34,339 nt of DNA from a virus (Duplodnaviria; Heunggongvirae; Uroviricota; Caudoviricetes). Position 1 is the first letter of the stretch; each line of letters begins with the position of its first letter. The stretch is taken from the IMG/VR virus record IMGVR_UViG_2648501437_000013; one strand, 5' to 3'. Below the pieces are notes generated by a model. That model did not search any database. It worked only from the letters and a program-made list of their open reading frames with translations, and was not told where the DNA came from. This document shows, piece by piece, positions 3,415 through 30,896 of the stretch. The position numbers and the translations under genes were made by a program.

Positions 3415-3450
3415 AGCCTACTTTAAACTTTTTAAAGTAGGCTTTTGTTT
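3415..3450. terminator. Rho-independent terminator hairpin (AGCCTACTTTAAA / TTTAAAGTAGGCT) with T-run
   Basis: 12-13 bp perfect inverted repeat immediately downstream of the exonuclease stop codon, T-rich on both flanks. Confidence 0.6.
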
Positions 3451-3998
3451 TACACAATTTCAGAGGGTAATTTAAAAAATCCGTACTTATTACGTGCCTT
3501 AAAGAAGCATTGCATCATTAAGTTTGTGTCATATAAGGCACTATGTGCTTTGGCATGATCGTATATAAAGCCAAGAGAGAAGGCCAACTCTTCAAGGCGG
3601 GGACGTTTACCGTCTTCTGTGGCCCACAGGGAAAATAGAGTGTCAATCAATGGGATGTCTGGAAGCGAAAAACCGTAACTTTTCAGCTCATGCCTAATAA
3701 ACGGAATATCGAACGCTTCGCCGTTGTGGGCTATCCAAATATCGGAAGAAGAGAGATACGAAGCGACAGATGAAGCGTGATCGGCTAGTAACGGCTCGGC
3801 GGCTAAATCTTCAAGACTGATGCCGTGTACCGCTTGCGCTTTCGGATCGATACTGCGACGCGGGTTGAACCGCATTACAAAACTATCAACCATTGTCTGT
3901 GTCTCAATTTCGTACTTCACCATTGCGATTTCAATGATTTTATGGCCTGAGAGGAAATCAAGACCTGTTGATTCGATGTCCACCCCTGTAGCAATCAC
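3450..3998 (-). CDS. DnaQ-like DEDDh 3'-5' exonuclease (Pol III epsilon-like proofreading exonuclease)
   Basis: Exo I (VDIESTGL), Exo II (HNGEAFDIPF) and Exo III (HSALYD) motifs in canonical order. Confidence 0.75.
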   Translation of the reverse strand: MIATGVDIESTGLDFLSGHKIIEIAMVKYEIETQTMVDSFVMRFNPRRSIDPKAQAVHGISLEDLAAEPLLADHASSVASYLSSSDIWIAHNGEAFDIPFIRHELKSYGFSLPDIPLIDTLFSLWATEDGKRPRLEELAFSLGFIYDHAKAHSALYDTNLMMQCFFKARNKYGFFKLPSEIV

Positions 3999-4789
3999 TT
4001 TTTATCTCCTTTTACTGGTCGTTTGGACGGTGTGAAGATGGCAGCTTCAACATCCCACCCCCTCAAAATTCGCTGCGAGATAATGGTCGCAGTCAAGCCA
4101 ACCTCTCTAGCCCATTCGGTAATTCGCTGAGTTCTGCCGCGACACTCGATCAGACGCTTACTATCTCGGTTGGCATACGTGTCGACGCTGGCGTTAAGCG
4201 CGCGATCTAATGGCCACCCTTTCTTGATTCGATAGTGAAGAGTTGATGTCTGAATCCCGGCTCTTTTAGCCCATTGTGAGAGAGTCAGCTTTTCCCCCTT
4301 ATGCTCCAAAATTAAGTTTGAACGCGTGTTATTGGCCTGTTCTTCAAAAGTCGCCCATCTGCAATTTTCAGGTTCGTAGTCACCATTCACATCTTTGCGA
4401 TCAAGAGACATCCCCTCTGGTCGCTCTCCCATGTCAGCATAAAAGTTTTCAAATATTTGCCACCGCTCGCAGACTTTGATACCTCGGCCGCCATACCACT
4501 TATAGGCGTGATGGGTTGGTTTTTCACATCGTTCCCGCATACCCAGCCATATACGATAAATTGGCGTTTTACTCATACCATGAGGCTTTACGCTACGGCG
4601 ATGTGCGTTGTAGACACAGCCACACGATATTGTCGCCCCGTGATTTAGCTTCCCGTAACTAACCAGGCAGGTGTTGCCGCAATCGCAGATGCAATCCCAA
4701 AGTCGCCCTTGTTTGTTTGAAATACCGGAATATTTAAGTGCAACCAACTTTCCAAAACGTTTACCTGTTATGTCTACCGGTTGTCCCAT
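3995..4789 (-). CDS. HNH-like (degenerate) homing-endonuclease-like DNA-binding protein with N-terminal Cys cluster and two C-terminal HTH-like repeats
   Basis: Cys-rich N-terminus (CICDCG...SCGC); YGGRGIKVCERW and LDRKDVNGDYEPENCRWATFEEQANN resemble the NxRWAT..EN tail of HNH_3-type endonucleases; repeats LTLSQWAKRAGIQTSTLHYRIKKGW and QRITEWAREVGLTATIISQRILRGW look like HTH modules. Function assignment from memory only. Confidence 0.45.
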   Translation of the reverse strand: MGQPVDITGKRFGKLVALKYSGISNKQGRLWDCICDCGNTCLVSYGKLNHGATISCGCVYNAHRRSVKPHGMSKTPIYRIWLGMRERCEKPTHHAYKWYGGRGIKVCERWQIFENFYADMGERPEGMSLDRKDVNGDYEPENCRWATFEEQANNTRSNLILEHKGEKLTLSQWAKRAGIQTSTLHYRIKKGWPLDRALNASVDTYANRDSKRLIECRGRTQRITEWAREVGLTATIISQRILRGWDVEAAIFTPSKRPVKGDKK

Positions 4790-4798
4790 TACTACTCC

Positions 4799-5218
4799 TT
4801 ACAACTTCTTAGCGCCCTTAAGTAGTGCGCTACGTACAAATTGAGCCGCTTTTTTCAAAGTTTCTTCACTGGTTTCACAGACAATCGGATCTTTCCACTT
4901 ACCTGACACAGTGTTGAGAATATTGATTTGGTTGCTATCCAGACAAACAGAGATATAAAGCACCGTGCCACCAGCCAGCATCAAATGCATAGGAAACAGA
5001 GGCTTTTTACTGCCTTCACTGAACTGAGACATGGCGATGTTAATGGCTTCACCCACTTGTGTACCAACAAGCCCCTGCGCAGTTTCGAATATGGCACGAA
5101 TAGCCAGACGAGCCTCTCGATCGCTCATAAGCGACCGGGAATGTTCGTCCGCTACACGAATCAAAGCCTCTGTTGTTTTCCGATCCAGTTCATCTTCAAG
5201 CAACATTTCACTAAACAT
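4799..5218 (-). CDS. Hypothetical protein (139 aa)
   Basis: Intact ORF in operon; no recognised motif. Confidence 0.45.
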   Translation of the reverse strand: MFSEMLLEDELDRKTTEALIRVADEHSRSLMSDREARLAIRAIFETAQGLVGTQVGEAINIAMSQFSEGSKKPLFPMHLMLAGGTVLYISVCLDSNQINILNTVSGKWKDPIVCETSEETLKKAAQFVRSALLKGAKKL

Positions 5219-5279
5219 TTTTTATCCTTAACCCATTTTGAGAGTTTTATTGTCGCAATGTAGAAGAGGCGAACAATTT

Positions 5280-5924
5280 CTAATGAACGGTCACTCGGCC
5301 ACAGAACCGGTTTTCTATCTTTTCTACAGCGTTATCTAGCATTCTCATCACTGATCTGGCTCTTGCTTCAACCGTGCGATATCGGTTGGAAACGACGAAG
5401 GTTTGCAGATCTCCCCTTTGCGGATGCAGGTGAATTTTTGTCAGTTCCCCGCACATCAACGCATCAATACGAGCAACATACAGACGGTCTAATGATGCTC
5501 GTTGTGATCGCAAGTAATCTCGCTCTGAGAGAGCGACTCCCGGGCGTAAGCCAGCAATGGCGTTAAAGTTTGAAATGGCAGTTTTGTGGCAAAACTTTTC
5601 GATATCGAGGGCTAACTCAATACACCGCTCTTCATTTGTATGGCCGACCAAATCCAACGTGTAGGCCATAACATCAGCAGGTGTGCGATCGATAACAAAG
5701 CCTTCAACACCACGCGTAAGTAGCTCTATGTGCTTTGCTATTTCCATTTGAATCTGAAGCCGCTCATATAGAGGCATAGACTCACCTACTCGAACACCGA
5801 GGCGGCTCATCAAACTTCCGACACCAGCATCCACGTAAGGGATTCCGTAATGTTTGTCGATATATTTAGCCAGGGTTGTTTTCCCACTGCCCTGAGCACC
5901 AGTGATCCCAATCCGGTAATCCAT
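5280..5924 (-). CDS. P-loop nucleotide kinase, thymidylate-kinase-like
   Basis: Walker A GAQGSGKTT near N-terminus followed by VIDRTPADVMAYT, resembling the DRY/AYQ region of dTMP kinases; start overlaps the DHFR stop. Confidence 0.5.
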   Translation of the reverse strand: MDYRIGITGAQGSGKTTLAKYIDKHYGIPYVDAGVGSLMSRLGVRVGESMPLYERLQIQMEIAKHIELLTRGVEGFVIDRTPADVMAYTLDLVGHTNEERCIELALDIEKFCHKTAISNFNAIAGLRPGVALSERDYLRSQRASLDRLYVARIDALMCGELTKIHLHPQRGDLQTFVVSNRYRTVEARARSVMRMLDNAVEKIENRFCGRVTVH

Positions 5925-6400
5925 TACGACCTTCTGTATACGATCTGCGAAAAGCCAGGCTCTTCCTCGCTGGCTCGTTGGGTATAAGCTGTTTCAACAG
6001 ACACAAAGCCTAAGTTACGCATCATGCTTGCCGGGAAGAATGCATCAGCGTTTGGTACATCAACGCCGATGTGGGAGAGCCAAATCTCTTCAACATGCGG
6101 CATGAATAGCGAGTAAATTTGTTCCCCGCCAATCACCCACACAGGCTCTGGTAATCGCAACACATCATCCACACCAGCAGGGTAGAATCCATTTGGTACA
6201 AAGCCATGAGAGCGCGTCAAAACGAGATTATGACGCTCTGGAAGAGGGCGTTTGAGACTTTCCATCGTTTTACGTCCCATAACGACAGTGGCGTTTTTGG
6301 TGAGTCTCTTAAATAGCTTCAGATCGGTAGAGCAACGCCAGGGCAGTTCGTTCGCTATACCGATCTCATAATTACGGCCAACAGCAGCTATCATCTTCAT
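5924..6400 (-). CDS. folA: Dihydrofolate reductase
   Basis: 158 aa; IAAVGRNYEIG...LPW, GRKT, VIGGEQIY motifs; GAGGTG RBS; sits next to thyA as in phage dTMP modules. Confidence 0.8.
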   Translation of the reverse strand: MKMIAAVGRNYEIGIANELPWRCSTDLKLFKRLTKNATVVMGRKTMESLKRPLPERHNLVLTRSHGFVPNGFYPAGVDDVLRLPEPVWVIGGEQIYSLFMPHVEEIWLSHIGVDVPNADAFFPASMMRNLGFVSVETAYTQRASEEEPGFSQIVYRRS

Positions 6401-6858
6401 TTGCCCACCTCATAGATGACCGGTCTATGATGAGAGTCAGCTAAAGCGGCACGGAGTCGAGGATCGTGCACCAGCGCAGCGATAAGCAGATCGCCTTTAT
6501 GCTCCGCTAATGTGCGCTTAATATGCTTCTCATAACTGATGCCATTCGGTACGAGATGAAGCCAGTCGTAATCAACACCAAAATCTTTCAGCCATCGTTT
6601 AGTGGGCGCTTCAAGAGTTTCAGAGCGGCTACTGATAAGCACCACTTCAGCCCCTGAGCGAGCAAAACCACGCAACATACGGCTGGTGGGGAAAATGAGG
6701 TCATCACCGGCAATGAGCTGGCCTGCATCCGCGTCAAATACAGATTTACGATGGCTGGTATTTGCCAGCACACCTTCAATTTCGCATAAGACATACATAC
6801 CTCTTGCCATATCACACCGCCACTGGAACCTTGATCCACGGTAGAGGGTCATAGCCAA
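6397..6858 (-). CDS. Hypothetical protein (start uncertain; alternative Met at ~6810)
   Basis: ORF between thyA and DHFR, translationally coupled to DHFR (ATGA overlap); no clear family assignment. Confidence 0.45.
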   Translation of the reverse strand: MAMTLYRGSRFQWRCDMARGMYVLCEIEGVLANTSHRKSVFDADAGQLIAGDDLIFPTSRMLRGFARSGAEVVLISSRSETLEAPTKRWLKDFGVDYDWLHLVPNGISYEKHIKRTLAEHKGDLLIAALVHDPRLRAALADSHHRPVIYEVGK

Positions 6859-7942
6859 GAATCAGAATATCGTCCCATTTGAAATCATCCAGCTCAGACC
6901 ATTCATGAGGGAAAATAACGACCGGATCTGAATGCTCTGGAGCCTGTCGTTTCATTAGCTCACACACACTTTCCATGTGGTTATTGTACAAATGCACGTC
7001 AAAGCCAAAATGCACAAAGGCACCGGCCATGTGACCCGTAATCTTCGCGAGAAAATGAGTGAGAATGCCATAACCAGCAATATTGAATGGCATACCAACA
7101 AAAGTGTCTACGCTACGCTGTACGAGGCAGGAGTTGAGGATGCGTTTGGGGATTCCAAGTTCATCCAGTTCAGCTTCAGTAACACTGCCGTCCATCTCCA
7201 GATCGTATAGCATCTTGGTGTAGATAGACTCGTAACCGAGGCGACTGTGTTGAAGACCAATGTCAGTTGCCATCGTTAAACGGGTTTCAAAATCAAGCTC
7301 ACGACTCCACAAAGAGAAGACAAAGTGGCAAGGTGGCAGTTTCATATCCTCAAGCTCGCCTACGTTCCATGCGTTAAGCATGATGCGACGATCGGTAGGG
7401 TTCGTGCGCAGTGTATCGACAATACGCTGTAGCTGATCGATTTCACGGGACAGCACTACGCGATCTTCACTGATACCTAGGTATCCCTCGACTTTGTACC
7501 CGCGTTCACGGAAAGTAGCGATCTTGCTCAGATATTCACTATGGCTCACGATGCGGGTATCTTCCCATCGACGCCACTGCTTACCGTAAACTGGCCCCAA
7601 ATCGCCATTCTCATCGGCCCATGCATCCCAAATCTTAACGCCGTTATCCTTGAGAAATTGAATGTTACCCGTGCCTTTCAGATACCACTCAAGTTCGACA
7701 AGTAGTGGCTTAAGATTTACCGCCTTTCCAGAAATAAGCGGCACAGTCCCACCAGTAAGCATGTAGTAAGAGGGAACGTAGCAGGTGCTTAAAGTACCAG
7801 TGCCTGTGCGATCATCAGCCTGCACGCCGCTTTTAAGCACCGTCTCAATAACTTTTGCATACGATGCGTTTGTTACCTGACCGTTCGTATGCTCACGATT
7901 CAAAAGGAGTGACACAAAAACCTCACAAAGATAAGTAACCAC
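6812..7942 (-). CDS. thyA: Thymidylate synthase (ThyA) with ~45-aa internal insertion; annotated start uncertain
   Basis: DRTGTGT, LPPCH (catalytic Cys) and QRSVD...MPFNIAGY motifs; insertion between LPPCH and QRS blocks relative to E. coli ThyA; track start (GTG at 7942) lies inside a nested palindrome, so the true start is probably 10-25 codons downstream. Confidence 0.8.
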   Translation of the reverse strand: MVTYLCEVFVSLLLNREHTNGQVTNASYAKVIETVLKSGVQADDRTGTGTLSTCYVPSYYMLTGGTVPLISGKAVNLKPLLVELEWYLKGTGNIQFLKDNGVKIWDAWADENGDLGPVYGKQWRRWEDTRIVSHSEYLSKIATFRERGYKVEGYLGISEDRVVLSREIDQLQRIVDTLRTNPTDRRIMLNAWNVGELEDMKLPPCHFVFSLWSRELDFETRLTMATDIGLQHSRLGYESIYTKMLYDLEMDGSVTEAELDELGIPKRILNSCLVQRSVDTFVGMPFNIAGYGILTHFLAKITGHMAGAFVHFGFDVHLYNNHMESVCELMKRQAPEHSDPVVIFPHEWSELDDFKWDDILILGYDPLPWIKVPVAV

Positions 7943-7958
7943 TTATTCATTGTGTGAG
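7922..7958. promoter_or_regulatory. Nested palindrome CTCACA-aag-ATAAGT-aacc-ACTTAT-tcat-TGTGAG at the thyA operon head
   Basis: Read directly; the inner element belongs to the recurrent ATA(A/G)GTAA...TTAC(C/T)TAT family. Confidence 0.45.
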
Positions 7959-7991
7959 TTTACATTTATTGAGAGAACAAGACCAGATAGA

Positions 7992-8024
7992 TAAAAAAAT
8001 GGTGGCCATAGGCCACCAAAAACG
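7992..8024 (-). terminator. Rho-independent terminator (TGGTGGCC-ata-GGCCACCA + T7 on minus strand)
   Basis: 8-bp GC-rich stem with A7/T7 run; downstream of gene 8087..8956. Confidence 0.75.
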
Positions 8025-8086
8025 GATAGTTGTTTCAGAAATTTAACGCGCCGACACAATATACATAGATAGATAACTACCTACAA

Positions 8087-8956
8087 TTATTTTTTGATCA
8101 TTTCGTACATTGCTGAGGCTTTAGCTTGCTCAACAAAGGAGGATAAATCGACATCACTATAGGTTGGAGACTTCAGAATTTTTCCATCGGAAATTCGAAA
8201 ACCGATCATCTTATCGGTGCCATCAGCATGGCGAAATCCCAGGTCTGAAGAGTCGTATTTGCAGTTGGCCACAGCCTGGCGACGTTCCTCGACATCAGCA
8301 GGCCATAATTTTGTCATGTTAGACCGATGAATTTCGCCAACCAGCTCGACGACATTGATACCGAGGAAATCAGCCAGTCGATAGGTCATCATGCACGCCA
8401 CATAGATTTTGTTCATGACACGGCGCAGTTCCTGAATCAGCTCAGAATCCTTAACAGTCTTGTTCTCAAGTTTATCTGCCAGCTCTTCGAGCATACATGA
8501 CGCCTCACGAGCTTCCTGAAATGGCATTGCCATATCATCGAAAACAGTGTTACCAGGCACAAAAATTGTCTGCATAAAGCGATCAATGCTCTGTTCCTGC
8601 GTGTAATAGGTCATGCCGGTAGAAATGCCGCCTTTGATGGCGACCATCGTACCAACACCAACGTATAAAAAGTCGGCCATTGCATCCAGCAGTTGCTCAA
8701 TATCCCCATTCATTGCGGCTGGAATACCTTCCACTACAGCTTCTTCATGAATCAGGCTTGCACGGAGACGAAGCAGCTCTGGTGTCGGCATAACGCGTCT
8801 CGGATGCTGGAAGAGTTCATGAAACTGATCGACCATCTTGTAAATACTTTCAGTGGCTACACCATGGCCTTCATGCAACTCATATGGTTCTGGCTTAAAT
8901 CCAATGAGTCGATCGGTGGCAAGTTTCAGGTGGTCAGTCAGTTTGGTAAAGTTCAT
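8087..8956 (-). CDS. Hypothetical protein; N-terminal region possibly MazG/HisE-like all-alpha NTP pyrophosphohydrolase
   Basis: 289-aa ORF; HEEAVVEG...DIEQLLDAMADFLYV resembles the EExxE/DxxxD metal-binding helices of MazG-like enzymes. Weak, memory-based. Confidence 0.4.
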   Translation of the reverse strand: MNFTKLTDHLKLATDRLIGFKPEPYELHEGHGVATESIYKMVDQFHELFQHPRRVMPTPELLRLRASLIHEEAVVEGIPAAMNGDIEQLLDAMADFLYVGVGTMVAIKGGISTGMTYYTQEQSIDRFMQTIFVPGNTVFDDMAMPFQEAREASCMLEELADKLENKTVKDSELIQELRRVMNKIYVACMMTYRLADFLGINVVELVGEIHRSNMTKLWPADVEERRQAVANCKYDSSDLGFRHADGTDKMIGFRISDGKILKSPTYSDVDLSSFVEQAKASAMYEMIKK

Positions 8957-9033
8957 GCTAGTTTTGTTCCTTCTTAATTCTTGTGATCCATTGTGGCCCA
9001 GCGTTGCCAGGCCACATAATGCTTTGTATCGGT

Positions 9034-10176: not shown

Positions 10177-10281
10177 GTGTTTTTCCTTTTGCTTTTTGAT
10201 GTGTTTAAACAAGTTGTTATCTTATTTGTTTAAACAAGGCTTACAAATCAAAGAGAAGGTGGGGATACACCCCACCATATG

Positions 10282-18753: not shown

Positions 18754-18793
18754 GCTGTAAGCCGCGCCACGACTGGTCTGAAGCCATGTTCAT

Positions 18794-18895
18794 GTATGCT
18801 ACCAGCGGTAATTGATAGTCTGTCAACGGTTCGCCGTATGCTGCCAACTGTTTTTGGTATGCTGCCAGCGGCAAATCAAGTATGCTGTCAGCGGT
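18794..18895 (+). repeat. Origin-proximal iteron array (about 4 copies of TATGCTGYCAGCGGT, two degenerate)
   Basis: Copies at 18794, 18837 (degenerate), 18858, 18881, directly upstream of the repA start. Confidence 0.75.
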
Positions 18896-18915
18896 TGAAT
18901 GACAAAGGTGTCCAC

Positions 18916-20010
18916 ATGTCCACAAAAAATAAAAAAGGTAAAAATAACAAAGAAGTAGAAGATAATCTCGACAACTTTGAAGAAGGTTCCCTTGAATTGT
19001 ACACAGGGGAACTTGTCCCTAATAGCAACAATACAGTCCAACCAATTGCGTTGATGCGGCTGGGGTTGTTCGTGCCCACGCTCAAGGGGACAAAATACAG
19101 CAAGCGTAACAAGCCAAATGAGATCGATGCTTCAAAGGAGCTTGTTCAGCTCGAAGTAGCCCGTTCTGAAGGTTATTCCGATATCAAGATAACCGGTCCT
19201 CGTCTCGACATGGATCATGATTTCAAAACGTGGGTGGGCGTTGTGCGTTCGCTGGCAGAATACGGCGAACCTAACGGTCGTGTCGAGTTAAGCATCACGA
19301 AATTTGCGAAGTTTTGTGGCTATCCATCGTCACAGATCCGCAAAACACTCCGCGACCGGCTTACAAACAGTCTTTTGAAGATCATGCGTACAACTCTGTC
19401 TTTTCAGAGAACGTATGAAGAAAAGAACGTCGACGGCTCTAACAAGATCTCGCTTCTGATGGTGCACCTCATCAATAGCGTGGACTACAACGAGCAGAAA
19501 GATACGGTGGTGTTCTATGCAGAACCGAAGCTGGCCGAACTATATCGCTTTGACCATAAAGTTCTTTTGCAGTTAAAGGTTATCAATAAGCTACCACGCA
19601 AAGAAACAGCACAGGCTCTGTACACCTTCATCGAAAGTCTTCCAACCAAGCCTGCGCCGGTATCGCTTGCTCGATTACGTGCGCGACTCAATTTGAGTAG
19701 CAGGAATGTCAGCTCGCAGAATCAGACTATACGTAACGGCTTAAAAGCTCTCCAAGATTTGGGCTATCTCGAATACAGCGAGATTAAGCGAGGGCGGTCG
19801 ATCTATATCCAGATTCACAGCCGCAATCCAAAACTCAAAGTCGCACCGCCAAAACCTGAAGACATCGAACCCAAAAAACCAGATGAGAAAGCTGGGGAAA
19901 TTGATGCCAAACAGAACATTATCAACAAGATAACCGAACTTTCGCAGAATTTGACGCCTGAAAATATCAAGATGATTGAGATCCTTTCCAATAGTCTCAA
20001 ACTGCTTTGA
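18916..20010 (+). CDS. repA: Replication initiator RepA (P1 RepA / RepFIB-type)
   Basis: Recalled similarity to P1 RepA (NSNNTVQPIALMRLGLFVP, DIKITGPRLDMDHDFKTW, YTFIESLP, HSRNPKLK); start moved to ATG 18916 (AAAGG RBS) because the track start reads through the iterons. Confidence 0.85.
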   Translation: MSTKNKKGKNNKEVEDNLDNFEEGSLELYTGELVPNSNNTVQPIALMRLGLFVPTLKGTKYSKRNKPNEIDASKELVQLEVARSEGYSDIKITGPRLDMDHDFKTWVGVVRSLAEYGEPNGRVELSITKFAKFCGYPSSQIRKTLRDRLTNSLLKIMRTTLSFQRTYEEKNVDGSNKISLLMVHLINSVDYNEQKDTVVFYAEPKLAELYRFDHKVLLQLKVINKLPRKETAQALYTFIESLPTKPAPVSLARLRARLNLSSRNVSSQNQTIRNGLKALQDLGYLEYSEIKRGRSIYIQIHSRNPKLKVAPPKPEDIEPKKPDEKAGEIDAKQNIINKITELSQNLTPENIKMIEILSNSLKLL

Positions 20011-20542
20011 TATGCTGTCAGCGGTGAAATGTATGCTATCAGCGGCTATTTTTCTGAAAAGTATGCTGTGAACGGTTAAAGATATGCTACCAGCGGTATA
20101 GTGAGATAAACGTATGCTGTGAGCGGTAAATCATCTATCACCACTCAATGCTCTGGCATACCTCCCCAGTGGTTACTAACCTCGAAGAGTGCATTCCATA
20201 TAGGTTTGCGCTCACTAACATTCTATTGCCGTTGCGCTGATTGCTTGTAGTGAAAGGCATTTATTGCCTGCTGCTCCCTGATAGAACGTATGCTGTCAGC
20301 GGTGTTTTATTGAGGAATTTTTGTTTGGATATGCTATCAGCGGTAATTAATGGTATATGTCAGACCTTCGTATGCTGCCAGCGGTAATTTTGTTCTGGTT
20401 ATACCCATACCGGTACACATTATTCATGCAATGTCTTAAGTATGCTGTCAGCGGTAAAAAATCGAGTAAAGTATGCTGTGAGCGGTGAGATAAACTCTCG
20501 ATATGCTATCAGCGGTAATTGATTGTGTATGCTGTCAGCGGT
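20011..20542 (+). repeat. Downstream iteron array, 12 copies of TATGCT(G/A)(T/C)(C/G)A(G/A)CGG(T/C) in two groups (5 + 7) separated by a ~160-bp spacer
   Basis: Copies at 20011, 20032, 20062, 20083, 20113, 20289, 20330, 20371, 20441, 20472, 20503, 20528, all in the same orientation; position matches a P1 incA-like copy-control locus. Confidence 0.8.
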
Positions 20543-20558
20543 GACGACTATGAAATAT

Positions 20559-20580
20559 GACTGCGGCACGTGCCGCAGTC
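20559..20580. terminator. Perfect 22-bp palindrome GACTGCGGCACGTGCCGCAGTC
   Basis: Read directly; sits between the iteron array and the stop of minus gene 20590..20802; no strong T-run, so it may be a protein-binding site rather than a terminator. Confidence 0.4.
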
Positions 20581-23031: not shown

Positions 23032-23034
23032 TAC

Positions 23035-23283: not shown

Positions 23284-23297
23284 ATATTTTCAAGAGA

Positions 23298-23325: not shown

Positions 23326-23327
23326 GT

Positions 23328-24401
23328 TTACTCTTCTACTGACTCGGTGGGGTTGTCTTTTGCTCTTCGGTCGTCGATTGCCTGCAAAGCCGCAATGATT
23401 TCAGCCAGTGGCTTCTCCCGATACATCTCGACGATCTGCGATTTGGTGTATTTCTTGTCACCAATTTCAACTCGCCCGCTGGCGTTCTTTGGCAGGTATC
23501 CTTCTTCCAGCATGTACTCGACGAGCGATTCGATAACGTCGAGGCCACGAGTAGGATCGAAGTAGAATTTCCAGGTGCATTTGCCATACGGTGGTGCAAC
23601 TTTGTTTTTGATGCATTCTGCGCCTACGTCCTGGCCGATCTTCTCTTTACCATCCTTCATCACCGATGCACCAAGACGGATACGTACAGAAGCGTAGAAC
23701 TTCGGTGAATCTCCACCTGGCGACGTAGTAGGGTCGCCAAACATTACACCGATTTTTGTGCGAACCTGATTCAAGAAGATGATGCAGGCGTTGTATTTGC
23801 GTGCCCACAAAGCCAGAGTAGGGAAGTTCGCACTCGTCGCACGAGCCAGTGCCGTATTGTCGTTCATGTTTAGCTGATCTTTGTCTTTGGCAGTGCCTTC
23901 AGCCATCTTTTCGAACTTCTCGGCTTTGGAGTTCGGAACCATAGACGCAAGAGAGTCAGCCACGATACAGATTGGTGCTGATTCGGGGATAAGCTCTTCA
24001 TCACGAACCAATTTAAGTATTGTGCCGATCAACTCTACAGAGTCTTCGAAGGTATCTGGCTGCTTGTATACCCACTGACCGTCATCCTCATCTGCGTTCA
24101 GGCCATTGGCGACAGCCAGGCCAACGTCAAAACTGTTTTCATGATCGAGGAATACCGCCAGACCATCTTGTTTTTGAGCGGAGATCATCGCTGCTGTTGC
24201 AAGGAACGTTTTCCCTGCACTTGGAGGACCGAATACTTCGACGATACGACCACATGGGAAGCCGCCATCGTAACGACCAGAAATAGCTTTGTTTAACGGT
24301 GGAAAGCCTGTATCAATCCAATGAGTTACTTTCTGAATTTCGTCGTTGCTACCGATTTTCTTTTTCAGAGCAAGTGCCAGTGCGGATTTTCCTTTTGCCA
24401 T
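23328..24401 (-). CDS. RecA-superfamily recombinase (UvsX/RecA-like)
   Basis: Walker A VEVFGPPSAGKTF, Walker B-like VFLDHENSFD; ~357 aa as for RecA/UvsX. Confidence 0.8.
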   Translation of the reverse strand: MAKGKSALALALKKKIGSNDEIQKVTHWIDTGFPPLNKAISGRYDGGFPCGRIVEVFGPPSAGKTFLATAAMISAQKQDGLAVFLDHENSFDVGLAVANGLNADEDDGQWVYKQPDTFEDSVELIGTILKLVRDEELIPESAPICIVADSLASMVPNSKAEKFEKMAEGTAKDKDQLNMNDNTALARATSANFPTLALWARKYNACIIFLNQVRTKIGVMFGDPTTSPGGDSPKFYASVRIRLGASVMKDGKEKIGQDVGAECIKNKVAPPYGKCTWKFYFDPTRGLDVIESLVEYMLEEGYLPKNASGRVEIGDKKYTKSQIVEMYREKPLAEIIAALQAIDDRRAKDNPTESVEE

Positions 24402-24403
24402 GA

Positions 24404-24676
24404 TCAGGCTCCTTTTGTTTCGTTGATTCGTTTTAAAGCGGCGGATTCATCGAATACAATCGCATCGTGGTTAAGGAGTCTGGATACACGAGCGAGGATT
24501 TTTACGACCTGCTCGCTGACTAATCCAAACTCGCGATCTGTCGCTTTCATTCCGGCAGCGCCTAGAATTGACGGCAGTGCGATGACAGCGTACTCACCGT
24601 GATAAAAGACAATCTCTTTTGCCAGTTGGGCAGGGGTGGTTGTAGCGCCATTGATAATCGATTTAAGCATTAGCAA
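24404..24676 (-). CDS. Hypothetical protein (90 aa)
   Basis: Intact ORF between FEN and recombinase, overlapping both. Confidence 0.45.
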   Translation of the reverse strand: MLMLKSIINGATTTPAQLAKEIVFYHGEYAVIALPSILGAAGMKATDREFGLVSEQVVKILARVSRLLNHDAIVFDESAALKRINETKGA

Positions 24677-25614
24677 TACCTTTCGAATGGAAGAACAAAC
24701 ACTTCAAGGTCTTCAAGGAACGAACGGAAATTCAGCTCGTAGCACAGTTGCTCGAATGCTTTCACGTCACGATTGCCTTTGATTGTTTCGATTTCGGTAG
24801 GCGGAAACTTCGTCTCAATCAGGTTCATTAGCGTGATGTTTCTCTTGAACGCTTCGAGCATTCGACAGCCTGTTTTCTCGTTGAAGGCATTCTTCGCTAG
24901 TTTGTTGAAGGCGGTCTTATGACGCCCTTTATTAACCACGATTGAGCCGTCGTTGATGCCGCGTACCATCGTTGCGACACTTCCCCATTCATGCAGCAGC
25001 TCTTTCGCACCGCCAGCACCAATGCCACCAACACCGCTAATGTTGTCCGAGTTATCGCCTTGTAATGCTTTTGCTTCCAAAAATGCGCGAGGCGTGGCGA
25101 ATCCTGTCAGCTCCGCAAATTGCTCAAAATTAACCTGCTTGTTTTTGGCGTCTTCACGCAGGCTTACCCAGCTTACGTTTTCACGAACTAACTGAAGCCA
25201 GTCGCTATCGCCTGTTAACAGATAGATGTGTTCAACGGTTGGCTGCGGTGCCATGCGGGATACCAGCAGCCCGGCCAGATCATCCGCTTCTGCATCTTTT
25301 GCAATGAGTTGGGTAACTCCAAGCGCGGTCATCATTTTGAGGATGTATGGCTTCTGGATAGCAAAGCCTTCCTTCATCTTTTTCATATCAGGATCGTCGT
25401 CGCGATTTGCTTTGTAGTCCGGGTAAAAGTCGCGACGCTTGTCACTAAATCCATCCCAAAGAATCATAGGTCGGGCATGGAGGATGGAGGCATAACGACG
25501 GACGTTCTTAACAAAGCCGAAAGCAGCCTGTACTTCCATTTCGCCGTTGTGCAATTTGTCAGATTGTTGGTGGTAATAACCCAGGCTATTGCCATCTACG
25601 AAGAGATAATTCAC
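24670..25614 (-). CDS. 5'-3' exonuclease / flap endonuclease (FEN, PIN + H3TH)
   Basis: Motifs VDGNSL, YKANR, EADD, TGDSDWLQL, GDNSDNISGVGGIG; track start (GTG 25665) lies in the upstream terminator hairpin, so start moved to GTG ~25614 preceded by GGAAGG. Confidence 0.8.
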   Translation of the reverse strand: MNYLFVDGNSLGYYHQQSDKLHNGEMEVQAAFGFVKNVRRYASILHARPMILWDGFSDKRRDFYPDYKANRDDDPDMKKMKEGFAIQKPYILKMMTALGVTQLIAKDAEADDLAGLLVSRMAPQPTVEHIYLLTGDSDWLQLVRENVSWVSLREDAKNKQVNFEQFAELTGFATPRAFLEAKALQGDNSDNISGVGGIGAGGAKELLHEWGSVATMVRGINDGSIVVNKGRHKTAFNKLAKNAFNEKTGCRMLEAFKRNITLMNLIETKFPPTEIETIKGNRDVKAFEQLCYELNFRSFLEDLEVFVLPFERYC

Positions 25615-25634
25615 CGGTACATTCCTTCCAAAAA

Positions 25635-25660
25635 GTAAGGCGTCCGTAGACGCCTTACTG
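25635..25660 (-). terminator. Rho-independent terminator GTAAGGCGTC-cgta-GACGCCTTAC (T5 on minus strand)
   Basis: 10-bp stem; downstream of the SSB stop (25675). Confidence 0.7.
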
Positions 25661-25674
25661 GTCACGTAATGGGA

Positions 25675-26703
25675 TTACAGAGAGTCCAGCTCTCTCAGTA
25701 GGTCATCCAGACCTTCATCTTCCGTCGCAGATGCGGTTGCTACAGATGTCGCTGCGACTGCTTCAGACTCTTTGACTGATACGGCAACGGCAGCGGAACT
25801 TGCCTCTGGTTTAAATTCAGTTTCAACGGCACGGAGGATTTCTTCATCAACCAGACTGGTTGGTTCAGAAGCCGGTGTGTGCGCGGTTGCTACAGCCGTC
25901 GCTCCTTCTGTATGACCAGTGACAGAGCCAAATCCAGGTAGTGCCGCAGCCGATGTTTTCGCGGTTGAGGAAATTGCTGGTGCAGATGCTGCGGCAGTTG
26001 GTGCAGCGATGCCAATCAGACGACCCATAGTGCGAACTGTCGACAGAAGACGAGTTTCATCAGCCTGATTTGCGTATGCGATCAGATCATGCTGGGTGTT
26101 CCAGAATTTATCTTCGATATCGCCTTTGTAGACTTTACGCTTAGGCGAGACGTCATATTTGGTATCGCGACCAGAGCCAGTACGTTTAATCAGGAATGCG
26201 TAGCCTTCCTCTTTGCTCAGTGGATTGCCGATATCATCAGCGATGTCTTCGGTGATTGCTTTGCAGATATCATCGAATACAGTAGACGGCAGCTCGATTA
26301 ACTGGCATTTCTCAGCATCTGCGAAATCCTCACGAGCAGAAAGAATGCCGTTGACCAGGTAGCGAGGAGTGGCACGCATTTGACCGATGCGTTCTTCCAT
26401 TGCTTTGTTACCCTTGTGACGAGCGCGACCTTCCATCACCATTTCGCATAGCTGACAAGCGCGACCGTGAGTATGTTGCTCACAAATATAAGCGTTGGTT
26501 GCTTCTTTACCTTCCTCGTTCTGATACTTAACGTAGTGCATACCGAAAGTCTGGAAGAACTTACCGTTTGGGTCGTCTTTATTCGGGAAGATGCGGATAT
26601 AGTTGACGCCGTCTTTTAAGCGAGTCAGATCAACGTTGTTACCACGTTTGGCGGCAATGTCTTCACGAGTTTTGTTAAGCAAATCAAGTAATGTCTTAGA
26701 CAT
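25675..26703 (-). CDS. Single-stranded DNA-binding protein, T4 gp32-like
   Basis: Cys/His cluster CEQHTHGRACQLCEM, Ala/Ser/Thr-rich linker, acidic C-terminal tail EDEGLDDLLRELDSL. Confidence 0.55.
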   Translation of the reverse strand: MSKTLLDLLNKTREDIAAKRGNNVDLTRLKDGVNYIRIFPNKDDPNGKFFQTFGMHYVKYQNEEGKEATNAYICEQHTHGRACQLCEMVMEGRARHKGNKAMEERIGQMRATPRYLVNGILSAREDFADAEKCQLIELPSTVFDDICKAITEDIADDIGNPLSKEEGYAFLIKRTGSGRDTKYDVSPKRKVYKGDIEDKFWNTQHDLIAYANQADETRLLSTVRTMGRLIGIAAPTAAASAPAISSTAKTSAAALPGFGSVTGHTEGATAVATAHTPASEPTSLVDEEILRAVETEFKPEASSAAVAVSVKESEAVAATSVATASATEDEGLDDLLRELDSL

Positions 26704-26786
26704 GTGTTTCTCCTTGTTGTGATTTGGCCGATGGCGCTATGCGCGTTGGGCTTTCGTTCATTCGTGGCTCTTTCGAGCTGTTAAAT

Positions 26787-26815
26787 GATAGATCAGTGCT
26801 TACTTATTATCTATC
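26787..26815. promoter_or_regulatory. Palindrome GATAGAT-cagtgcttacttatt-ATCTATC upstream of the SSB gene
   Basis: 7-bp outer arms; inner part matches the recurrent ATAAGTAAG core. Confidence 0.4.
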
Positions 26816-26820
26816 AAAAA

Positions 26821-27252
26821 TCAACGGGGAGTGATAAAGCGTTCAGAGCCTAATCGCTCTAATTCAACGATGGCCATCTTTGACGCCTGAACGATCATGT
26901 CTCGGCGATGCGAAAAGGCGGCGACAGCATGTTTGTATATGTCTGCGATGTGCCGTGCTTCATCCAACTTCTGCCGTTTAGACAGATACTGTGGGTTTGT
27001 TTTAACCTTAGCGTCCAGTACAGATTCGTTGAACTTAATGCCGTTCATACTCAAGTTCTTACGCTCTGTGTCGTATAGCTTTGCTTCAACAGCTTCAAGG
27101 TTAAGTTTTGCTTCTGCGACACTTCTTTCTGCATGGGCGAGTTTTGAGCCATATTCCATCAACAGGCGGGGTTGTCTACGCCAGACTTCTTCCAGATTGT
27201 CTCGGTCAAACTCGAGATCAGACATTATTTTCTCGTAAATATCGGCGATCAT
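26821..27252 (-). CDS. Hypothetical protein; possible UvsY-like recombination mediator
   Basis: Start set at ATG ~27252 (AAGGAAA RBS) rather than track 27276; weak, memory-based resemblance to T4 UvsY plus neighbourhood with UvsX-like and gp32-like genes. Confidence 0.4.
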   Translation of the reverse strand: MIADIYEKIMSDLEFDRDNLEEVWRRQPRLLMEYGSKLAHAERSVAEAKLNLEAVEAKLYDTERKNLSMNGIKFNESVLDAKVKTNPQYLSKRQKLDEARHIADIYKHAVAAFSHRRDMIVQASKMAIVELERLGSERFITPR

Positions 27253-27286
27253 GCACATTTCCTTATCACTTATCATTTTGTATTGA

Positions 27287-27295
27287 TTATATCAT
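27287..27295 (-). promoter_or_regulatory. Extended -10 promoter element TGATATAAT (minus strand)
   Basis: Perfect TATAAT with TG two nt upstream, ~35 nt upstream of the ATG at 27252. Confidence 0.5.
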
Positions 27296-27325
27296 TGTAA
27301 TGATGAGGCAATGAGCTTGAAGATA

Positions 27326-27371
27326 GGGGGGGGAGGGGATAAGGGAAAACATGGCCTTTATGGCCATGTTT
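27326..27371. other. G8-A-G4-ATAA-G3 tract followed by 10-bp hairpin AAACATGGCC-tttat-GGCCATGTTT, just downstream of the dnaE stop
   Basis: Read directly; on the minus-strand transcript the hairpin is followed by a C-rich run, not a U-tract. Confidence 0.5.
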
Positions 27372-27377
27372 ATTGGA

Positions 27378-30300
27378 TCACGTCTTAATAGTTTCTGCTA
27401 CGTCGGCTAATATCGCTTCTAGTCGTTCTCCCTCTTCAGGTCTGAAGTAAAGAATGTTGGGGTTAAACCCGTAAAAGACAGTAACGTCAAGGTCTGGAAG
27501 ATACTCCTTCCTGCCGACCAAATCGGATGGCTTGTTTTTGTTGTTAAACAATGCCGTTGCCCGGCTGCCACACGTCAGCACATAGGTCGGACGCACCAGA
27601 TTGATCTCTTCACGTATAAAGTCGGTGAACTGGCCGATCTCGTCTTTGGTGTAGTCTTTTTCTTTGTCTTTAACCTTCTTGCAAACGCCTGTGACATAGA
27701 GATCGCCCATGCGTAAATCTCCAGCCGTCAATAGCTTGGCCTTAAAGTCGTCGTATCCGTTCTCCATAAAGTAACCGGTTCGAGCATCATTGCCGTTCGC
27801 ATTGTCCAGAATGATCATGATTTTCGGCTTAATACCAATGCTGGGGCGGATTAGTTCATCACCTAAGCCCATTTCAGCCGCCATCCGCGTCATGAGTACG
27901 TTAATTTCAGCCGAACGTTTGGGGTTCATCTCAAACGGACGTGAGGCTTTAACTGCGTCTATGACAAGATTTCCCATCAATTCAGCCTGGTCGCGTAGGC
28001 GCTCTGGAGCAGTTGCTGGCAGACTACCTGGCTCGATGGATGCAAACGCCCCTACTTTTTGCAGCGATTCGCGCACTCGACTATTACAGGCACGTTTCTC
28101 GACAGCTTCTTCGAATTGCGCCAGTGACTCGAATTTGCCGCCAACTTTTTCTCGCGCTCTCATGATGGCTTGGCAGCCATTCTCAGAACACCCCTTCACA
28201 GCAGAGAATGGCGCATACAGCACCTGGCTGCCATCTTCAAGCGTGCGGATCTCGATTCGGTTAGATGACACGTTAACGTCTGGTGGCAATACGCGAATAC
28301 CATAGGTCAGCGCATCTTTAACCAGCCCTTGGTGTTTATCTTCGCCAAGAATAGTGAGAGCAGCAGCGAAAAACTCTGCGGGATAATGAGTTTTCAACCA
28401 CATAGATTGATAACTGATTAAGGAGTAAGCAACAGAGTGTGATTTGTTGAACTGGTAGGCACCATTTTTTTCGAATGCGGTCCAGATCTCCTTCGCTTTC
28501 ATCTCTGATAGCCCTGGATGTGACGCTGTAACGCGTACTGCGTTTATAGGTAGTTTTGCGCCGTGCTCAAGTGCCTCTTCGACAGTTTTCAGAGTTCCGT
28601 CTTCGCATTTAAAATGTTCCGCACGGTGAATGCGCTGTGTAGTGCCATCTTCCAGCTCAACGTCTATCCAGCCAGCTTGAGCCTGAACGATGAACTTCTC
28701 GCCCATGCTCTTCATTTTTTCCATGTCCTTTTTGCCGATCGCTTTACGAACACCGTCAGCTTCAGCCATTGTGAAGCCAGCAAGCAATCGAGTCGCGTTC
28801 ATCGTCTGTTCCTGATAGAGAATCACGCCATTTGTTTCTGCGGTAAGTTCATCAAGAACGGGGTGTAATGATTCCGGCGTCATAAAGCCTTTGGCTACAG
28901 AAACATAGTCATCCAACATGCCTGACTGAATTGGCCCTGGCCGGAAGAGCGCAGTCGTAGCGACGACCGTTTTAAAGCTCATTGGCTCAATTCCACCACC
29001 TAAATCTTTAAGCAGCTTGCGCATTGGGCCTGATTCAAGCTGGAAAACACCTTGAGTATACCCAGCAGCAAAACCATCCAGCACCTTGCGATCTTCAAGA
29101 GAAATGGCATCAAGATTGATATCTTCACCTGTGTTCTCTTTTATGTAGCGTTTTGCACTATCGAGCAAATCGAGAGTTGCCAGGCCAAGCACGTCCAGCT
29201 TAATTAGGCCCATAGCCTCGCAGTAACGCTTGTCAAATGCGATACAACGCGCGTCACCACGGCGCTCAACCGGTGTACGTTCTGTCAGAAGAACACCTGC
29301 TACGATCATCCCTGCCGCATGTCTACCAAAGCCACGCATAAGGCTTTGTAACTTGCAGGCTGCATTGAATGCATCAGGATATTTTGTTGCGTATTTGTCG
29401 AGACTTGCCAGTTGTTCGCGCAGCTCTTCCAATGGAAGGCTATCATCCTCGACGTTCTTCAGTTCTTTTGATACCGCCATATCTGCGGACTCCACACCAT
29501 AAATACGAGCGGTATCACGTAGTGCAGAGGCTGCGCCCAGGTAGGTGAAGTTCGGAATGCCTGCAACGTAATCTTCGCCGTAGCGTTCATTCAGATACTC
29601 GATCACTTCATGGCGACGTGCCTGGCTGAAGTCCAAATCCGCATCCGGCAAGTCGAGACGCTCAGGGTTGATGAAACGTTCAAACAGAAGACCGTGACGG
29701 ATTGGGTCGACGTTGGTTATGCCTATGCACCATGCCACCAGAGATCCAGCGGAGGAACCACGACCAGGCCCGACAGGAATGCCAGTTTCACGGCTGTGAT
29801 TCATCAGATCGCGTACCATCAGGAAGTAACCACAAAATCCCAGGCGAGTCAGCGTGTCCATTTCGTACTTTAGCCGCTCAACATAAACCCTGTTCTCAGA
29901 AGCAGGTGGTGTGTAGCCAAACTCTTTTGTGGTAAGACGTTTACGCAGCCCTGCAACAGCCAGTTTCATAAGCGTTGCAGGCTCGTCGTCTGCCATCTTT
30001 GGCAGTGCTGGCGGCAATTCATGCCAGCGCCATGTGCAGGCATCGATAATGGTATCCTGCGTTGTTGAGGCCATTGCAGCTGTTACCGGCACATCCATGC
30101 GAACGGAGAAGGCTTTAAGCGCCTCAAGGAGATGGCGGCGACCATTGACGGCGTTATCTCGCTGGTGGGGGATACGCAGACGATGCGGCTGGTCGATTTT
30201 GATGTTGTTCGTAACCATGTGCGCAATGTCTTTAATGTCTGCATCGTCGATCGATTCGTAATAAGCGGGATAGAACGCCACTGGCTCTATTTTCAATGCG

Positions 30301-30896
30301 CTGGCGACTTTCATCGCCCGGACGTTAATCTGGTCGTAGAATGGGGTAGGGTGCGGATAAACCACACTATAGAAGTTGTCTTTTCCACCCGCTGTAATCA
30401 GTGTGCTTATAATTTTTGCAAAATCGTTGCGTTGGAACACGCTACCGATGTCGGAAGTAAGCAGGATGATGTTGCCTTTGGCATATGTAGAAACCAACTG
30501 TTCGAGCGAGAGACGCGGTACAAAGTAGAACTGTTCTCGTGTGTTGGCCGCCGTCATTAGTTCGCAGATGTCGCGATATCCTTTCTCATTTTTAATTAGA
30601 GCGGTAAACGAGTAGTTACGTCCTCGCTCTAATGATTCCATACATCCCTTAGATTCTTTAGCAAGTTTAGCCCGGTGCTCGTATGTGGGATCATCAACGA
30701 TATTTAGTTTCACACCACAAATAACCGCCATGTCGCCACCAGCGGCACGTTGTAGTGGAATAACACTCGCAATATTCATGCTATCTGCTGAAATTACAGC
30801 GGTGTAGCCAGCTTCTCTGGCAATCTTCACCGCGTTTTCTGCTTTTAAAGCCGACTCCCCAAGTGAGAAGTCAGTTCGAACCATCAGTGCCTTCAT
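27378..30896 (-). CDS. dnaE: DNA polymerase III alpha subunit (DnaE-type replicative polymerase, N-terminal PHP domain)
   Basis: 1172 aa; PolC/DnaE palm motif GYFLMVRDLMNHSRETGIPVGPGRGSSAGSLVAWCIGITNVDP; PHP-like N-terminus; length close to E. coli DnaE, no intein-sized insertion. Confidence 0.9.
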   Translation of the reverse strand: MKALMVRTDFSLGESALKAENAVKIAREAGYTAVISADSMNIASVIPLQRAAGGDMAVICGVKLNIVDDPTYEHRAKLAKESKGCMESLERGRNYSFTALIKNEKGYRDICELMTAANTREQFYFVPRLSLEQLVSTYAKGNIILLTSDIGSVFQRNDFAKIISTLITAGGKDNFYSVVYPHPTPFYDQINVRAMKVASALKIEPVAFYPAYYESIDDADIKDIAHMVTNNIKIDQPHRLRIPHQRDNAVNGRRHLLEALKAFSVRMDVPVTAAMASTTQDTIIDACTWRWHELPPALPKMADDEPATLMKLAVAGLRKRLTTKEFGYTPPASENRVYVERLKYEMDTLTRLGFCGYFLMVRDLMNHSRETGIPVGPGRGSSAGSLVAWCIGITNVDPIRHGLLFERFINPERLDLPDADLDFSQARRHEVIEYLNERYGEDYVAGIPNFTYLGAASALRDTARIYGVESADMAVSKELKNVEDDSLPLEELREQLASLDKYATKYPDAFNAACKLQSLMRGFGRHAAGMIVAGVLLTERTPVERRGDARCIAFDKRYCEAMGLIKLDVLGLATLDLLDSAKRYIKENTGEDINLDAISLEDRKVLDGFAAGYTQGVFQLESGPMRKLLKDLGGGIEPMSFKTVVATTALFRPGPIQSGMLDDYVSVAKGFMTPESLHPVLDELTAETNGVILYQEQTMNATRLLAGFTMAEADGVRKAIGKKDMEKMKSMGEKFIVQAQAGWIDVELEDGTTQRIHRAEHFKCEDGTLKTVEEALEHGAKLPINAVRVTASHPGLSEMKAKEIWTAFEKNGAYQFNKSHSVAYSLISYQSMWLKTHYPAEFFAAALTILGEDKHQGLVKDALTYGIRVLPPDVNVSSNRIEIRTLEDGSQVLYAPFSAVKGCSENGCQAIMRAREKVGGKFESLAQFEEAVEKRACNSRVRESLQKVGAFASIEPGSLPATAPERLRDQAELMGNLVIDAVKASRPFEMNPKRSAEINVLMTRMAAEMGLGDELIRPSIGIKPKIMIILDNANGNDARTGYFMENGYDDFKAKLLTAGDLRMGDLYVTGVCKKVKDKEKDYTKDEIGQFTDFIREEINLVRPTYVLTCGSRATALFNNKNKPSDLVGRKEYLPDLDVTVFYGFNPNILYFRPEEGERLEAILADVAETIKT

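Follow-up and report, generated by a model that had tools for sequence, protein, structure and literature searches.

A DnaE-type polymerase with a UDG-like C-terminal domain and its candidate proofreading exonuclease in an SSU5/pHCM2-type phage-plasmid

Does a phage-plasmid that encodes its own DnaE-type DNA polymerase also supply the matching proofreader, and does such a polymerase rely on accessory subunits of the host DNA polymerase III (Pol III)? These questions are raised by the IMG/VR virus record IMGVR_UViG_2648501437_000013 (Duplodnaviria; Heunggongvirae; Uroviricota; Caudoviricetes), a stretch of 34,339 nucleotides referred to here as the window. From its sequence content, we assign the window to an SSU5/pHCM2-type phage-plasmid, of which it represents the arm for replication, recombination and nucleotide metabolism. 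In a megablast search of positions 3000-27900 (24.9 kb) against 50,697 phage records, it matched Escherichia phage Cyrano at 97.2% identity across 84% of the query length, and Salmonella phage SSU5, together with related phage-plasmids of Klebsiella, at 77.5%. A sequence-only reading of the window had described two open reading frames (ORFs), one for a polymerase and one for a stand-alone exonuclease; both exist at the positions given, on the minus strand, and encode a C-family polymerase and an intact DEDDh exonuclease, respectively. Our analysis tips modestly towards the view that the exonuclease acts in trans as the 3'-5' proofreader of the phage DnaE. The two genes and the parts of the polymerase on which the argument turns are as follows.

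27378-30896, minus strand: DnaE-type (C-family) DNA polymerase of 'DnaE-UDG' architecture (UDG, uracil-DNA glycosylase), 1172 codons
30369-30881, minus strand: PHP domain with degenerate metal-ligand motifs, polymerase residues 6-176
29184-29972, minus strand: palm/NTPase core with the catalytic aspartates, residues 309-571
28518-28673, minus strand: extra segment of 52 amino acids between fingers and helix–hairpin–helix (HhH) domain, residues 742-793
28032-28301, minus strand: HhH domain of the beta-binding type, residues 866-955 (Pfam HHH_6, 1.7e-16; aligned to residues 789-947 of the Thermus aquaticus alpha subunit)
27963-28001, minus strand: conserved motif RLRDQAELMGNLV, residues 966-978
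27381-27929, minus strand: family-4 UDG-like C-terminal domain, residues ~990-1172, in place of the OB fold and the tau-binding domain
3450-3998, minus strand: stand-alone epsilon-like DEDDh 3'-5' exonuclease, catalytic domain only, 182 codons

The 36 main ORFs of the window were scanned with Pfam, NCBIfam and PHROG. In addition to its HhH match, the polymerase contains the Pfam domains PHP (8.5e-13), DNA_pol3_alpha (8.8e-73) and DNA_pol3_finger (2.6e-44). It passes the NCBIfam superfamily model TIGR00594 (628 bits, cutoff 434) and falls below the cutoff of every DnaE equivalog model (for example NF004226, 675 versus 1002). The best solved relative, the T. aquaticus alpha subunit, aligns by phmmer (5e-121) up to polymerase residue 954, and residues 9-893 of E. 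coli DnaE align by tblastn up to residue 956. Within this core, the sequence 'LPDADLDF' corresponds to E. coli 'MPDFDVDF' (D401/D403) and 'KLDVLGL' to 'KFDFLGL' (D555), and the 'GPGRGS' motif is conserved, so that the polymerase active site is predicted to be intact. The PHP domain has a different fate: its HxH motif reads 'MVRTDFS', the histidine of motif II is gone ('SADSMNI') and 'NDxH' is replaced by 'YPA--YY'. The same ligand losses were found in the aligned homologues of phages nickie, RHEph10, ANB28 and N1_10, and the PHP nuclease site is accordingly predicted to be dead across the clade. The polymerase is ~36% identical among hosts from three proteobacterial orders.

What follows the core sets this protein apart from a canonical alpha subunit. 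Pfam found no OB fold, and this region instead folds like a UDG; the part of E. coli DnaE that includes the tau-binding domain (residues 894-1160) was unmatched both by tblastn and in the alignment. The last ~180 residues match NCBIfam model TIGR00758 (UDG family 4) at 1.3e-8, with a score of 34.8 that lies far under the cutoff of 125.3. An AlphaFold2 (AF2) model of residues 955-1172 reached a mean predicted local distance difference test (pLDDT) of 90.8. Comparison of the UDG-like domain with the Protein Data Bank (PDB) by Foldseek retrieved the entries 4zbx, 1ui0 and 1l9g, each with probability 1.0, as well as UdgX (E ~1e-11, template modelling (TM) scores 0.65-0.78). The tail thus shares the fold of family-4 UDGs and UdgX, but an alignment with stand-alone family-4 enzymes (P0049-P0054) revealed marked differences in the motifs. 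Motif A, GE[AG]PG, is changed to LDNAN, with the acidic residue kept, and the histidine of motif B is replaced by an invariant asparagine, the window reading G-F-N-P. SSU5-like members no longer have the Fe-S cysteines, and a Cys-X2-Cys pair persists in nickie and the Acinetobacter relatives. Judged by these substitutions, the domain is most plainly read as catalytically degenerate. A UDG relationship is also mentioned in GenBank, where the note for the RHEph10 homologue already lists 'uracil-DNA glycosylase-like'. The statement of the sequence-only reading that the only polymerase is a full-length Pol III alpha therefore holds in its first half, since Pfam identified no second polymerase among the main ORFs; 'full-length' does not apply, because the UDG-like domain replaces the OB fold and the tau-binding domain.

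The 52-residue segment between fingers and HhH domain is a local peculiarity. It is absent from the nickie, RHEph10, ANB28, N1_10 and E. coli proteins, and the DNA alignment to Cyrano is interrupted across 28452-28710. The segment coincides exactly with the point at which dnaE of relatives divides into two ORFs. Plasmid pCMCVTAb1-Ab4 of Acinetobacter (L012 5426-9669) has a NUMOD4 ORF between a 785-residue N-terminal piece and a 421-residue piece with the HhH and UDG domains, and many SSU5-like and metagenomic relatives carry a separate C-terminal ORF of ~389 residues that starts at residues 784-795 (P0009, 1459 members). The dnaE gene appears to be commonly 'fractured' in this clade.

The exonuclease gene starts with a GTG codon that is preceded by an AAGGAG Shine-Dalgarno sequence. 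Its product matches Pfam RNase_T (1.3e-22) and phrog_192, 'DNA polymerase exonuclease subunit' (6e-51), and contains all DEDDh residues (D7, E9, D97, H152 and D157), none of which varies among 61 homologues. Among solved structures, the N-terminal domain of E. coli epsilon comes closest (7e-12, epsilon residues 12-176, 28% identity). Profile hidden Markov models (HMMs) place the protein close to epsilon (1e-21), DinG-N (7e-21) and the PolC exonuclease (1e-17), and much further from ExoX and RNase T (only ~1e-4). Structure comparison gave a similar picture: an AF2 model (pLDDT 96.3) was matched by Foldseek to epsilon (1j53, TM 0.79-0.82, root-mean-square deviation 2.4 Å) and also to the exonuclease domain of S. 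aureus DinG, with RNase T, ExoX and TREX2 at slightly weaker scores. The protein stays under the cutoffs of the relevant NCBIfam models (NF004316, 77 versus 196; TIGR01406, 76.5 versus 222.7; TIGR00573, 59 versus 71.5). As the sequence-only reading had stated, it is the only plausible 3'-5' proofreader in the window, given that the PHP ligands are lost and that the other nucleases are a 5'-3' flap endonuclease (FEN), SbcCD, a RuvC-like resolvase and RNase H. A match in Acinetobacter phage nACB2 that is labelled 'DNA polymerase' was considered as a possible Rosetta-stone fusion; it proved to be a stand-alone exonuclease of 178 residues and offers no evidence of fusion. Distant homologues (P0058-P0174) very often end in -AA (...QQAA, ...KEAA, ...LAA) and thereby resemble the ssrA degron, an extension that SSU5-like proteins do not have.

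Between the two genes lie several terminator-like hairpins on the minus strand (for example 23323-23303, 22184-22165, 12636-12615 and 8018-8000) and a gene on the opposite strand:

18796-20010, plus strand: RepA-type plasmid initiator (Pfam Rep3_N, 5.3e-9), between the exonuclease and polymerase genes

With 23.4 kb of intervening DNA on top of these features, the distance of about 23 kb and the different operons proposed by the sequence-only reading stand up, and an assignment to different transcription units is reasonable, the hairpins being consensus matches only. Because dnaE (205,126) and dnaQ (236,067) of E. coli K-12 are likewise 27.5 kb apart and in different operons, separate encoding of polymerase and proofreader is the norm and unremarkable in itself.

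In a tblastn search with a threshold of at least 40% identity, exonuclease homologues were present in 31 of the 50,697 phage records, and homologues of the DnaE UDG tail were found in the same 31 and in one additional 13-kb fragment. The co-carrying phages, all 84-122 kb in size, comprise 12 SSU5-like, 10 Rhizobium, 6 Pseudomonas (nickie-like), 2 Stenotrophomonas and 1 Xanthomonas phage, and diverge to 41-43% identity in the exonuclease and ~36% in DnaE. Among plasmids, ~980 records contain a DnaE-UDG polymerase, and the genus counts for exonuclease and DnaE tail were 343 versus 346 in Klebsiella, 136 versus 137 in Acinetobacter, 49 versus 49 in Salmonella and 89 versus 91 in Enterobacter. Public plasmid records include exonucleases with 99.5% identity to that of the window, and DnaE copies with 98-99.5% identity over the C-terminal 218 residues. 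Four diverse relatives keep the gene order primase-ligase-CobT-CobS-DnaE-...-SSB-FEN-RecA-SbcDC-RuvC-Nrd-Thy-...-exonuclease (SSB, single-stranded DNA-binding protein), with exonuclease and DnaE ~25-37 kb apart.

The question of accessory subunits was approached through both gene content and the polymerase sequence. Pfam revealed no clamp, clamp loader, tau or theta among the main ORFs of the window, in agreement with the sequence-only reading, which had named a full-genome search for dnaN and dnaX homologues among its checks. Carried out on the 97%-identical Cyrano genome, this check found none: the annotation lists neither clamp nor clamp loader, and 17 Cyrano hypothetical proteins outside the window gave no corresponding Pfam match. 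When E. coli DnaN and DnaX and T4 gp45, gp44 and gp62 were used as tblastn queries against the whole Cyrano genome, the best match had only E = 1.3, and with T4 gp43 added and the window included it had only E = 0.27; very remote clamp homologues are possible among the remaining small hypothetical proteins. 

In the polymerase itself, the sole conserved short motif following the HhH domain is RLRDQAELMGNLV, with the pattern R-x-[RK]-D-Q-x-[ER]-L-[LM], whose R, D, Q and L do not change across seven divergent homologues. Its DQxEL[LM] part is clamp-peptide-like (QADMF-like) by pattern, yet it aligns with the E. coli alpha helix 897-RAALMNSL ('HRAALMNSL') and not with 920-QADMF-924, and the model gives it a helical structure (pLDDT 61-71). 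We had first read DQxELM as a clear internal clamp-binding motif and downgraded it to ambiguous in view of this alignment and the helix model. The loop homologous to E. coli 920-QADMF-924 showed no conserved motif in the polymerase alignment, and the polymerase has no C-terminal clamp motif. Docking of host tau in the canonical way is predicted to be impossible, because the tau-binding domain is absent.

These results bear on the proposal of the sequence-only reading that host Pol III accessory subunits are recruited, in its fuller form that the phage DnaE joins the host beta clamp, the tau/clamp loader and possibly host epsilon in the manner of E. coli alpha. The missing clamp and clamp-loader genes in the window and in Cyrano, the retained 'beta-binding' HhH domain and the clamp-peptide pattern of DQxEL[LM] would all be in keeping with it. 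However, the alignment and predicted helical state of that motif, the missing C-terminal clamp motif and the loss of the tau-binding domain together with the OB fold speak against such an assembly, as does the presence of an own DnaB-like helicase, primase and gp32-type SSB, which suggests a self-contained, T4-like replisome. Moreover, viral C-family polymerases have C-terminal regions unlike that of E. coli alpha and usually no clamp, and those with divergent C-termini may use other processivity mechanisms (Kazlauskas and Venclovas, PMC3201878). We therefore regard integration into the host holoenzyme as doubtful: the sequence gives no positive support for recruitment of host tau, and its support for a host clamp is ambiguous.

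Several observations also count against the exonuclease being the proofreader of the phage DnaE. All co-carriers belong to one syntenic phage lineage, so that co-occurrence may reflect shared descent and not functional coupling. In ~63 Y. pestis plasmids of the pMT1 type, cobT-cobS-dnaE is present and both the exonuclease and the nucleotide module are missing. The exonuclease protein ends 25 residues past Exo III (~epsilon 190) and lacks the Q-linker and the alpha-binding C-terminal segment (epsilon ~190-243). Its tail, YGFFKLP in the window, is modelled within the fold (pLDDT ~94), and a free tethering peptide is not evident in the model. The gene does not neighbour that of the polymerase and instead closes the nucleotide-metabolism cluster at its remote end, and literature searches aimed at this element or its architecture brought up no functional work on the SSU5 or pHCM2 DnaE or exonuclease (interaction, activity or fidelity). 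Because the epsilon C-terminal segment is missing, assembly into an E. coli-like core or holoenzyme cannot be assumed.

Two side observations belong to these points. The conserved tail x-G-[FL]-[FY]-x-x-P lies at the same offset from Exo III as the epsilon motif QTSMAF and lacks its Q; G-[FL]-[FY]-x-x-P was considered as a clamp-binding peptide and downgraded when AF2 placed the tail in the ordered fold. Among plasmids, the pMT1-type L013 (NZ_CP084340.1) carries cobT-cobS-dnaE(UDG)-FEN-recA-repA in SSU5 order; 63 Yersinia records contain the DnaE tail, and the genus is not listed for exonuclease matches, which limits these to at most three records.

The main rival to the proofreader assignment is that the exonuclease belongs to a nucleotide-supply or DNA-end-processing module and acts independently of the polymerase, like T4 DexA, ExoX or TREX. 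Its gene ends an array of NrdAB, MazG-like, ThyA, polynucleotide kinase (PNK)-phosphatase-like, dihydrofolate reductase (DHFR) and kinase-like genes, a position kept in relatives, and pMT1, which retains dnaE, has lost it along with the entire nucleotide module. The missing epsilon-type tether fits this role, as do the structural neighbours RNase T, ExoX and TREX2, which score only slightly below epsilon in Foldseek. Against it stand the HMM comparisons, in which epsilon, DinG-N and the PolC exonuclease (1e-21 to 1e-17) are clearly favoured and ExoX and RNase T reach only ~1e-4, the strict co-occurrence in phages with the DnaE-UDG variant, and the fact that the polymerase would otherwise be left with no proofreader. 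On this evidence, a salvage or end-processing role is rather unlikely.

The window encodes a phage-type replisome composed of the DnaE-type polymerase, a gp32-like SSB, a UvsY-like mediator, RecA, FEN, SbcCD, a RuvC-like resolvase and RNase H. During phage-mode replication, the exonuclease would most probably supply 3'-5' proofreading in trans to DnaE, and the two proteins would associate through an interface other than the tether between the C-terminal segment of E. coli epsilon and the PHP domain. Processivity could come from the host beta clamp, via a putative binding motif, or from the fused UDG-like domain acting as a DNA-binding module. In the plasmid state, RepA-initiated replication may use the host replisome instead.

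A last alternative, that DnaE is not the main replicase at all, with RepA and host Pol III maintaining the plasmid state and DnaE and exonuclease serving repair or recombination-dependent synthesis or persisting as a dispensable relic in some lineages, could draw on the RepA-type initiator between the two genes, on the non-phage plasmid pMT1 with dnaE and no exonuclease, on the homing-endonuclease ORFs that split dnaE in many relatives and on the IS2 element that disrupts the CobT-like gene upstream in the window, but it is unlikely given the intact active site, the retention of the gene across hosts of three proteobacterial orders and the lack of any other DNA polymerase in Cyrano (by annotation, and no T4 gp43-like protein by tblastn) or evident in the 45-49 kb stretches examined of lytic relatives.

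The remainder of the window provides the genomic setting of the two genes. SSU5/pHCM2-type phage-plasmids are very common in clinical Enterobacteriaceae and carry resistance genes. The window has the same gene order as the SSU5/pHCM2/Cyrano-type elements; the Cyrano annotation is colinear with it, and shared colinear DNA blocks were seen. Nearly all genes lie on the minus strand, repA being the only one on the plus strand. In transcription order, the CobT-like VWA protein, the CobS-like MoxR AAA+ ATPase and the polymerase are followed by the UvsY-like protein, gp32-like SSB, 5'-3' FEN, RecA and an SPFH protein, and then by RepA on the opposite strand. Beyond RepA lie genes for an ASCH-like protein, SbcD, SbcC and the RuvC-like resolvase, next NrdA, NrdB, MazG-like, ThyA, PNK-phosphatase-like, DHFR and P-loop kinase-like proteins, and finally an ORF of unknown function, an HNH endonuclease, the DEDDh exonuclease, another unknown ORF, Dam and RNase H. 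Close relatives have genes for a DnaB-like helicase, a DnaG-like primase, UvsW and a ligase in other parts of their genomes. The features bordering the exonuclease, and one of the nucleotide-metabolism genes, are listed here.

3995-4789, minus strand: HNH homing-endonuclease-like ORF (phrog_374, 2.1e-79), directly 5' of the exonuclease gene and not present in Cyrano
2482-3291, minus strand: protein of unknown function, 269 residues (phrog_5235), flanking the exonuclease gene
4799-5218, minus strand: protein of unknown function, 139 residues (phrog_5373), on the other flank
6812-7942, minus strand: thymidylate synthase ORF, 376 residues compared with 266 positions in the Pfam profile

This copy differs from Cyrano in several respects. 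It has an added HNH ORF 5' of the exonuclease gene, a different repA region and an IS2 element inside the cobT-like gene, and it lacks hicAB and the recA insertion. The TGA stop codon of the HNH ORF overlaps the GTG start of the exonuclease gene, and the exonuclease is 79% identical to that of Cyrano and 93% identical to that of Klebsiella phage GArcari-2022b, with flanking DNA at 94-98%; the HNH insertion and the divergence of the exonuclease suggest homing-associated mosaicism. Partial homologues of the flanking proteins occur near the exonuclease of relatives, the 269-residue protein in nickie and ANB28 and the 139-residue protein in RHEph10, ANB28 and N1_10. The repA region (18783-20572) does not resemble Cyrano at the DNA level, and both flanks are 88-98% identical, so the replicon module appears to have been swapped. 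Cyrano recA (L001 30362-32701) contains an insertion of ~1.26 kb and encodes 780 residues, compared with 357 in the window (23328-24401); the insertion is likely an intein or a homing element. The Cyrano hicAB genes sit between the UvsY-like gene and dnaE. Finally, the Pfam match of the thymidylate synthase ORF falls in two stretches, which suggests an internal insertion.

Upstream of the polymerase lies a pair of genes that is shared by the relatives.

31077-32312, minus strand: CobS-like MoxR-family AAA+ ATPase, immediately 5' of DnaE (Pfam AAA_5, 2.1e-15; TIGR01650, 9e-24, below cutoff)
32408-33907, minus strand: CobT-like VWA protein, 5'-truncated by IS2 (Pfam CobT_C, 6e-83)
L008 4982-8383; L009 3988-7830; L010 44256-47432; L012 648-3959; L013 13254-16952: CobT/CobS-like pair in relatives

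Homology to Cyrano begins 607 nucleotides into the Cyrano CobT-like gene, and positions 33905-34339 are IS2 (99.8% identity). The element has removed the first ~202 codons of the CobT-like gene, the head of the cobT-cobS-dnaE array, and polar effects on the expression of cobS and dnaE are possible. A CobT-/CobS-like pair lies directly 5' of DnaE-UDG in every clade member examined, namely nickie, RHEph10, N1_10, ANB28, the Acinetobacter phage-plasmid and pMT1. A function in cobalamin synthesis is unlikely, and the two proteins are candidate polymerase accessory factors.

These elements can be combined into a further-reaching model, which we consider improbable at present. In it, DnaE-UDG and the tail-less exonuclease would together make up a minimal, virus-specific C-family replicase that needs no tau and perhaps no sliding clamp either. 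By analogy with poxvirus D4, the degenerate UDG domain would replace the OB fold as an intrinsic DNA-binding, processivity or uracil-sensing module. The exonuclease would use a novel docking interface, and the CobS/CobT-like pair could be a further accessory factor.

Comparison with known systems helps to place the locus. With the E. coli Pol III core (alpha DnaE, epsilon DnaQ and theta), it shares a C-family polymerase whose PHP domain is inactive, a separate epsilon-type DEDDh exonuclease and the unlinked position of the two genes. In contrast to that core, the polymerase has a UDG-like domain and no OB fold or tau-binding domain, the exonuclease has neither the clamp motif QTSMAF nor the 57-residue alpha-binding tail of epsilon, theta was not found in the window, and both proteins score below the NCBIfam equivalog cutoffs. 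A closer counterpart is 'DnaEX', described as an additional polymerase on plasmids of Y. pestis and S. enterica in which an archaeal-type UDG domain replaces the OB and C-terminal domains (Timinskas et al, 2014; PMC3919608). The window polymerase belongs to the same family, its tail being 94-95% identical to those pMT1- and pHCM2-type plasmid copies, and differs in nothing substantive; its allele is continuous (unsplit) and contains the 52-residue extra segment. GenBank labels the Cyrano proteins 'DNA polymerase III alpha subunit' and 'Exonuclease, PolIII subunit epsilon'. At the level of annotation and domain architecture, the finding is therefore already known and largely ordinary, and the existence of unlinked polymerase and proofreader genes is expected; what is added to the DnaEX description are the degenerate UDG motifs and the co-inheritance of the exonuclease.

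The association of a UDG fold with a replicative polymerase in a clampless genome has parallels in vaccinia virus, where the polymerase E9 works with D4 (a UDG) and A20, and in viral A-family polymerases with a fused UDG-like domain. On the model of D4/A20, the UDG domain fused to viral polymerases was proposed as a possible intrinsic processivity factor (PMC3201878). The present case differs from these in that the polymerase belongs to family C and not to B or A, and the UDG-like domain is covalently attached at the C-terminus, with the canonical motif residues missing. If the replicase of this element is indeed independent of tau and possibly of a clamp, it would represent a rare, experimentally tractable reduced C-family replisome and a second case, after the poxviruses, in which a UDG fold has been recruited to a replicative polymerase.

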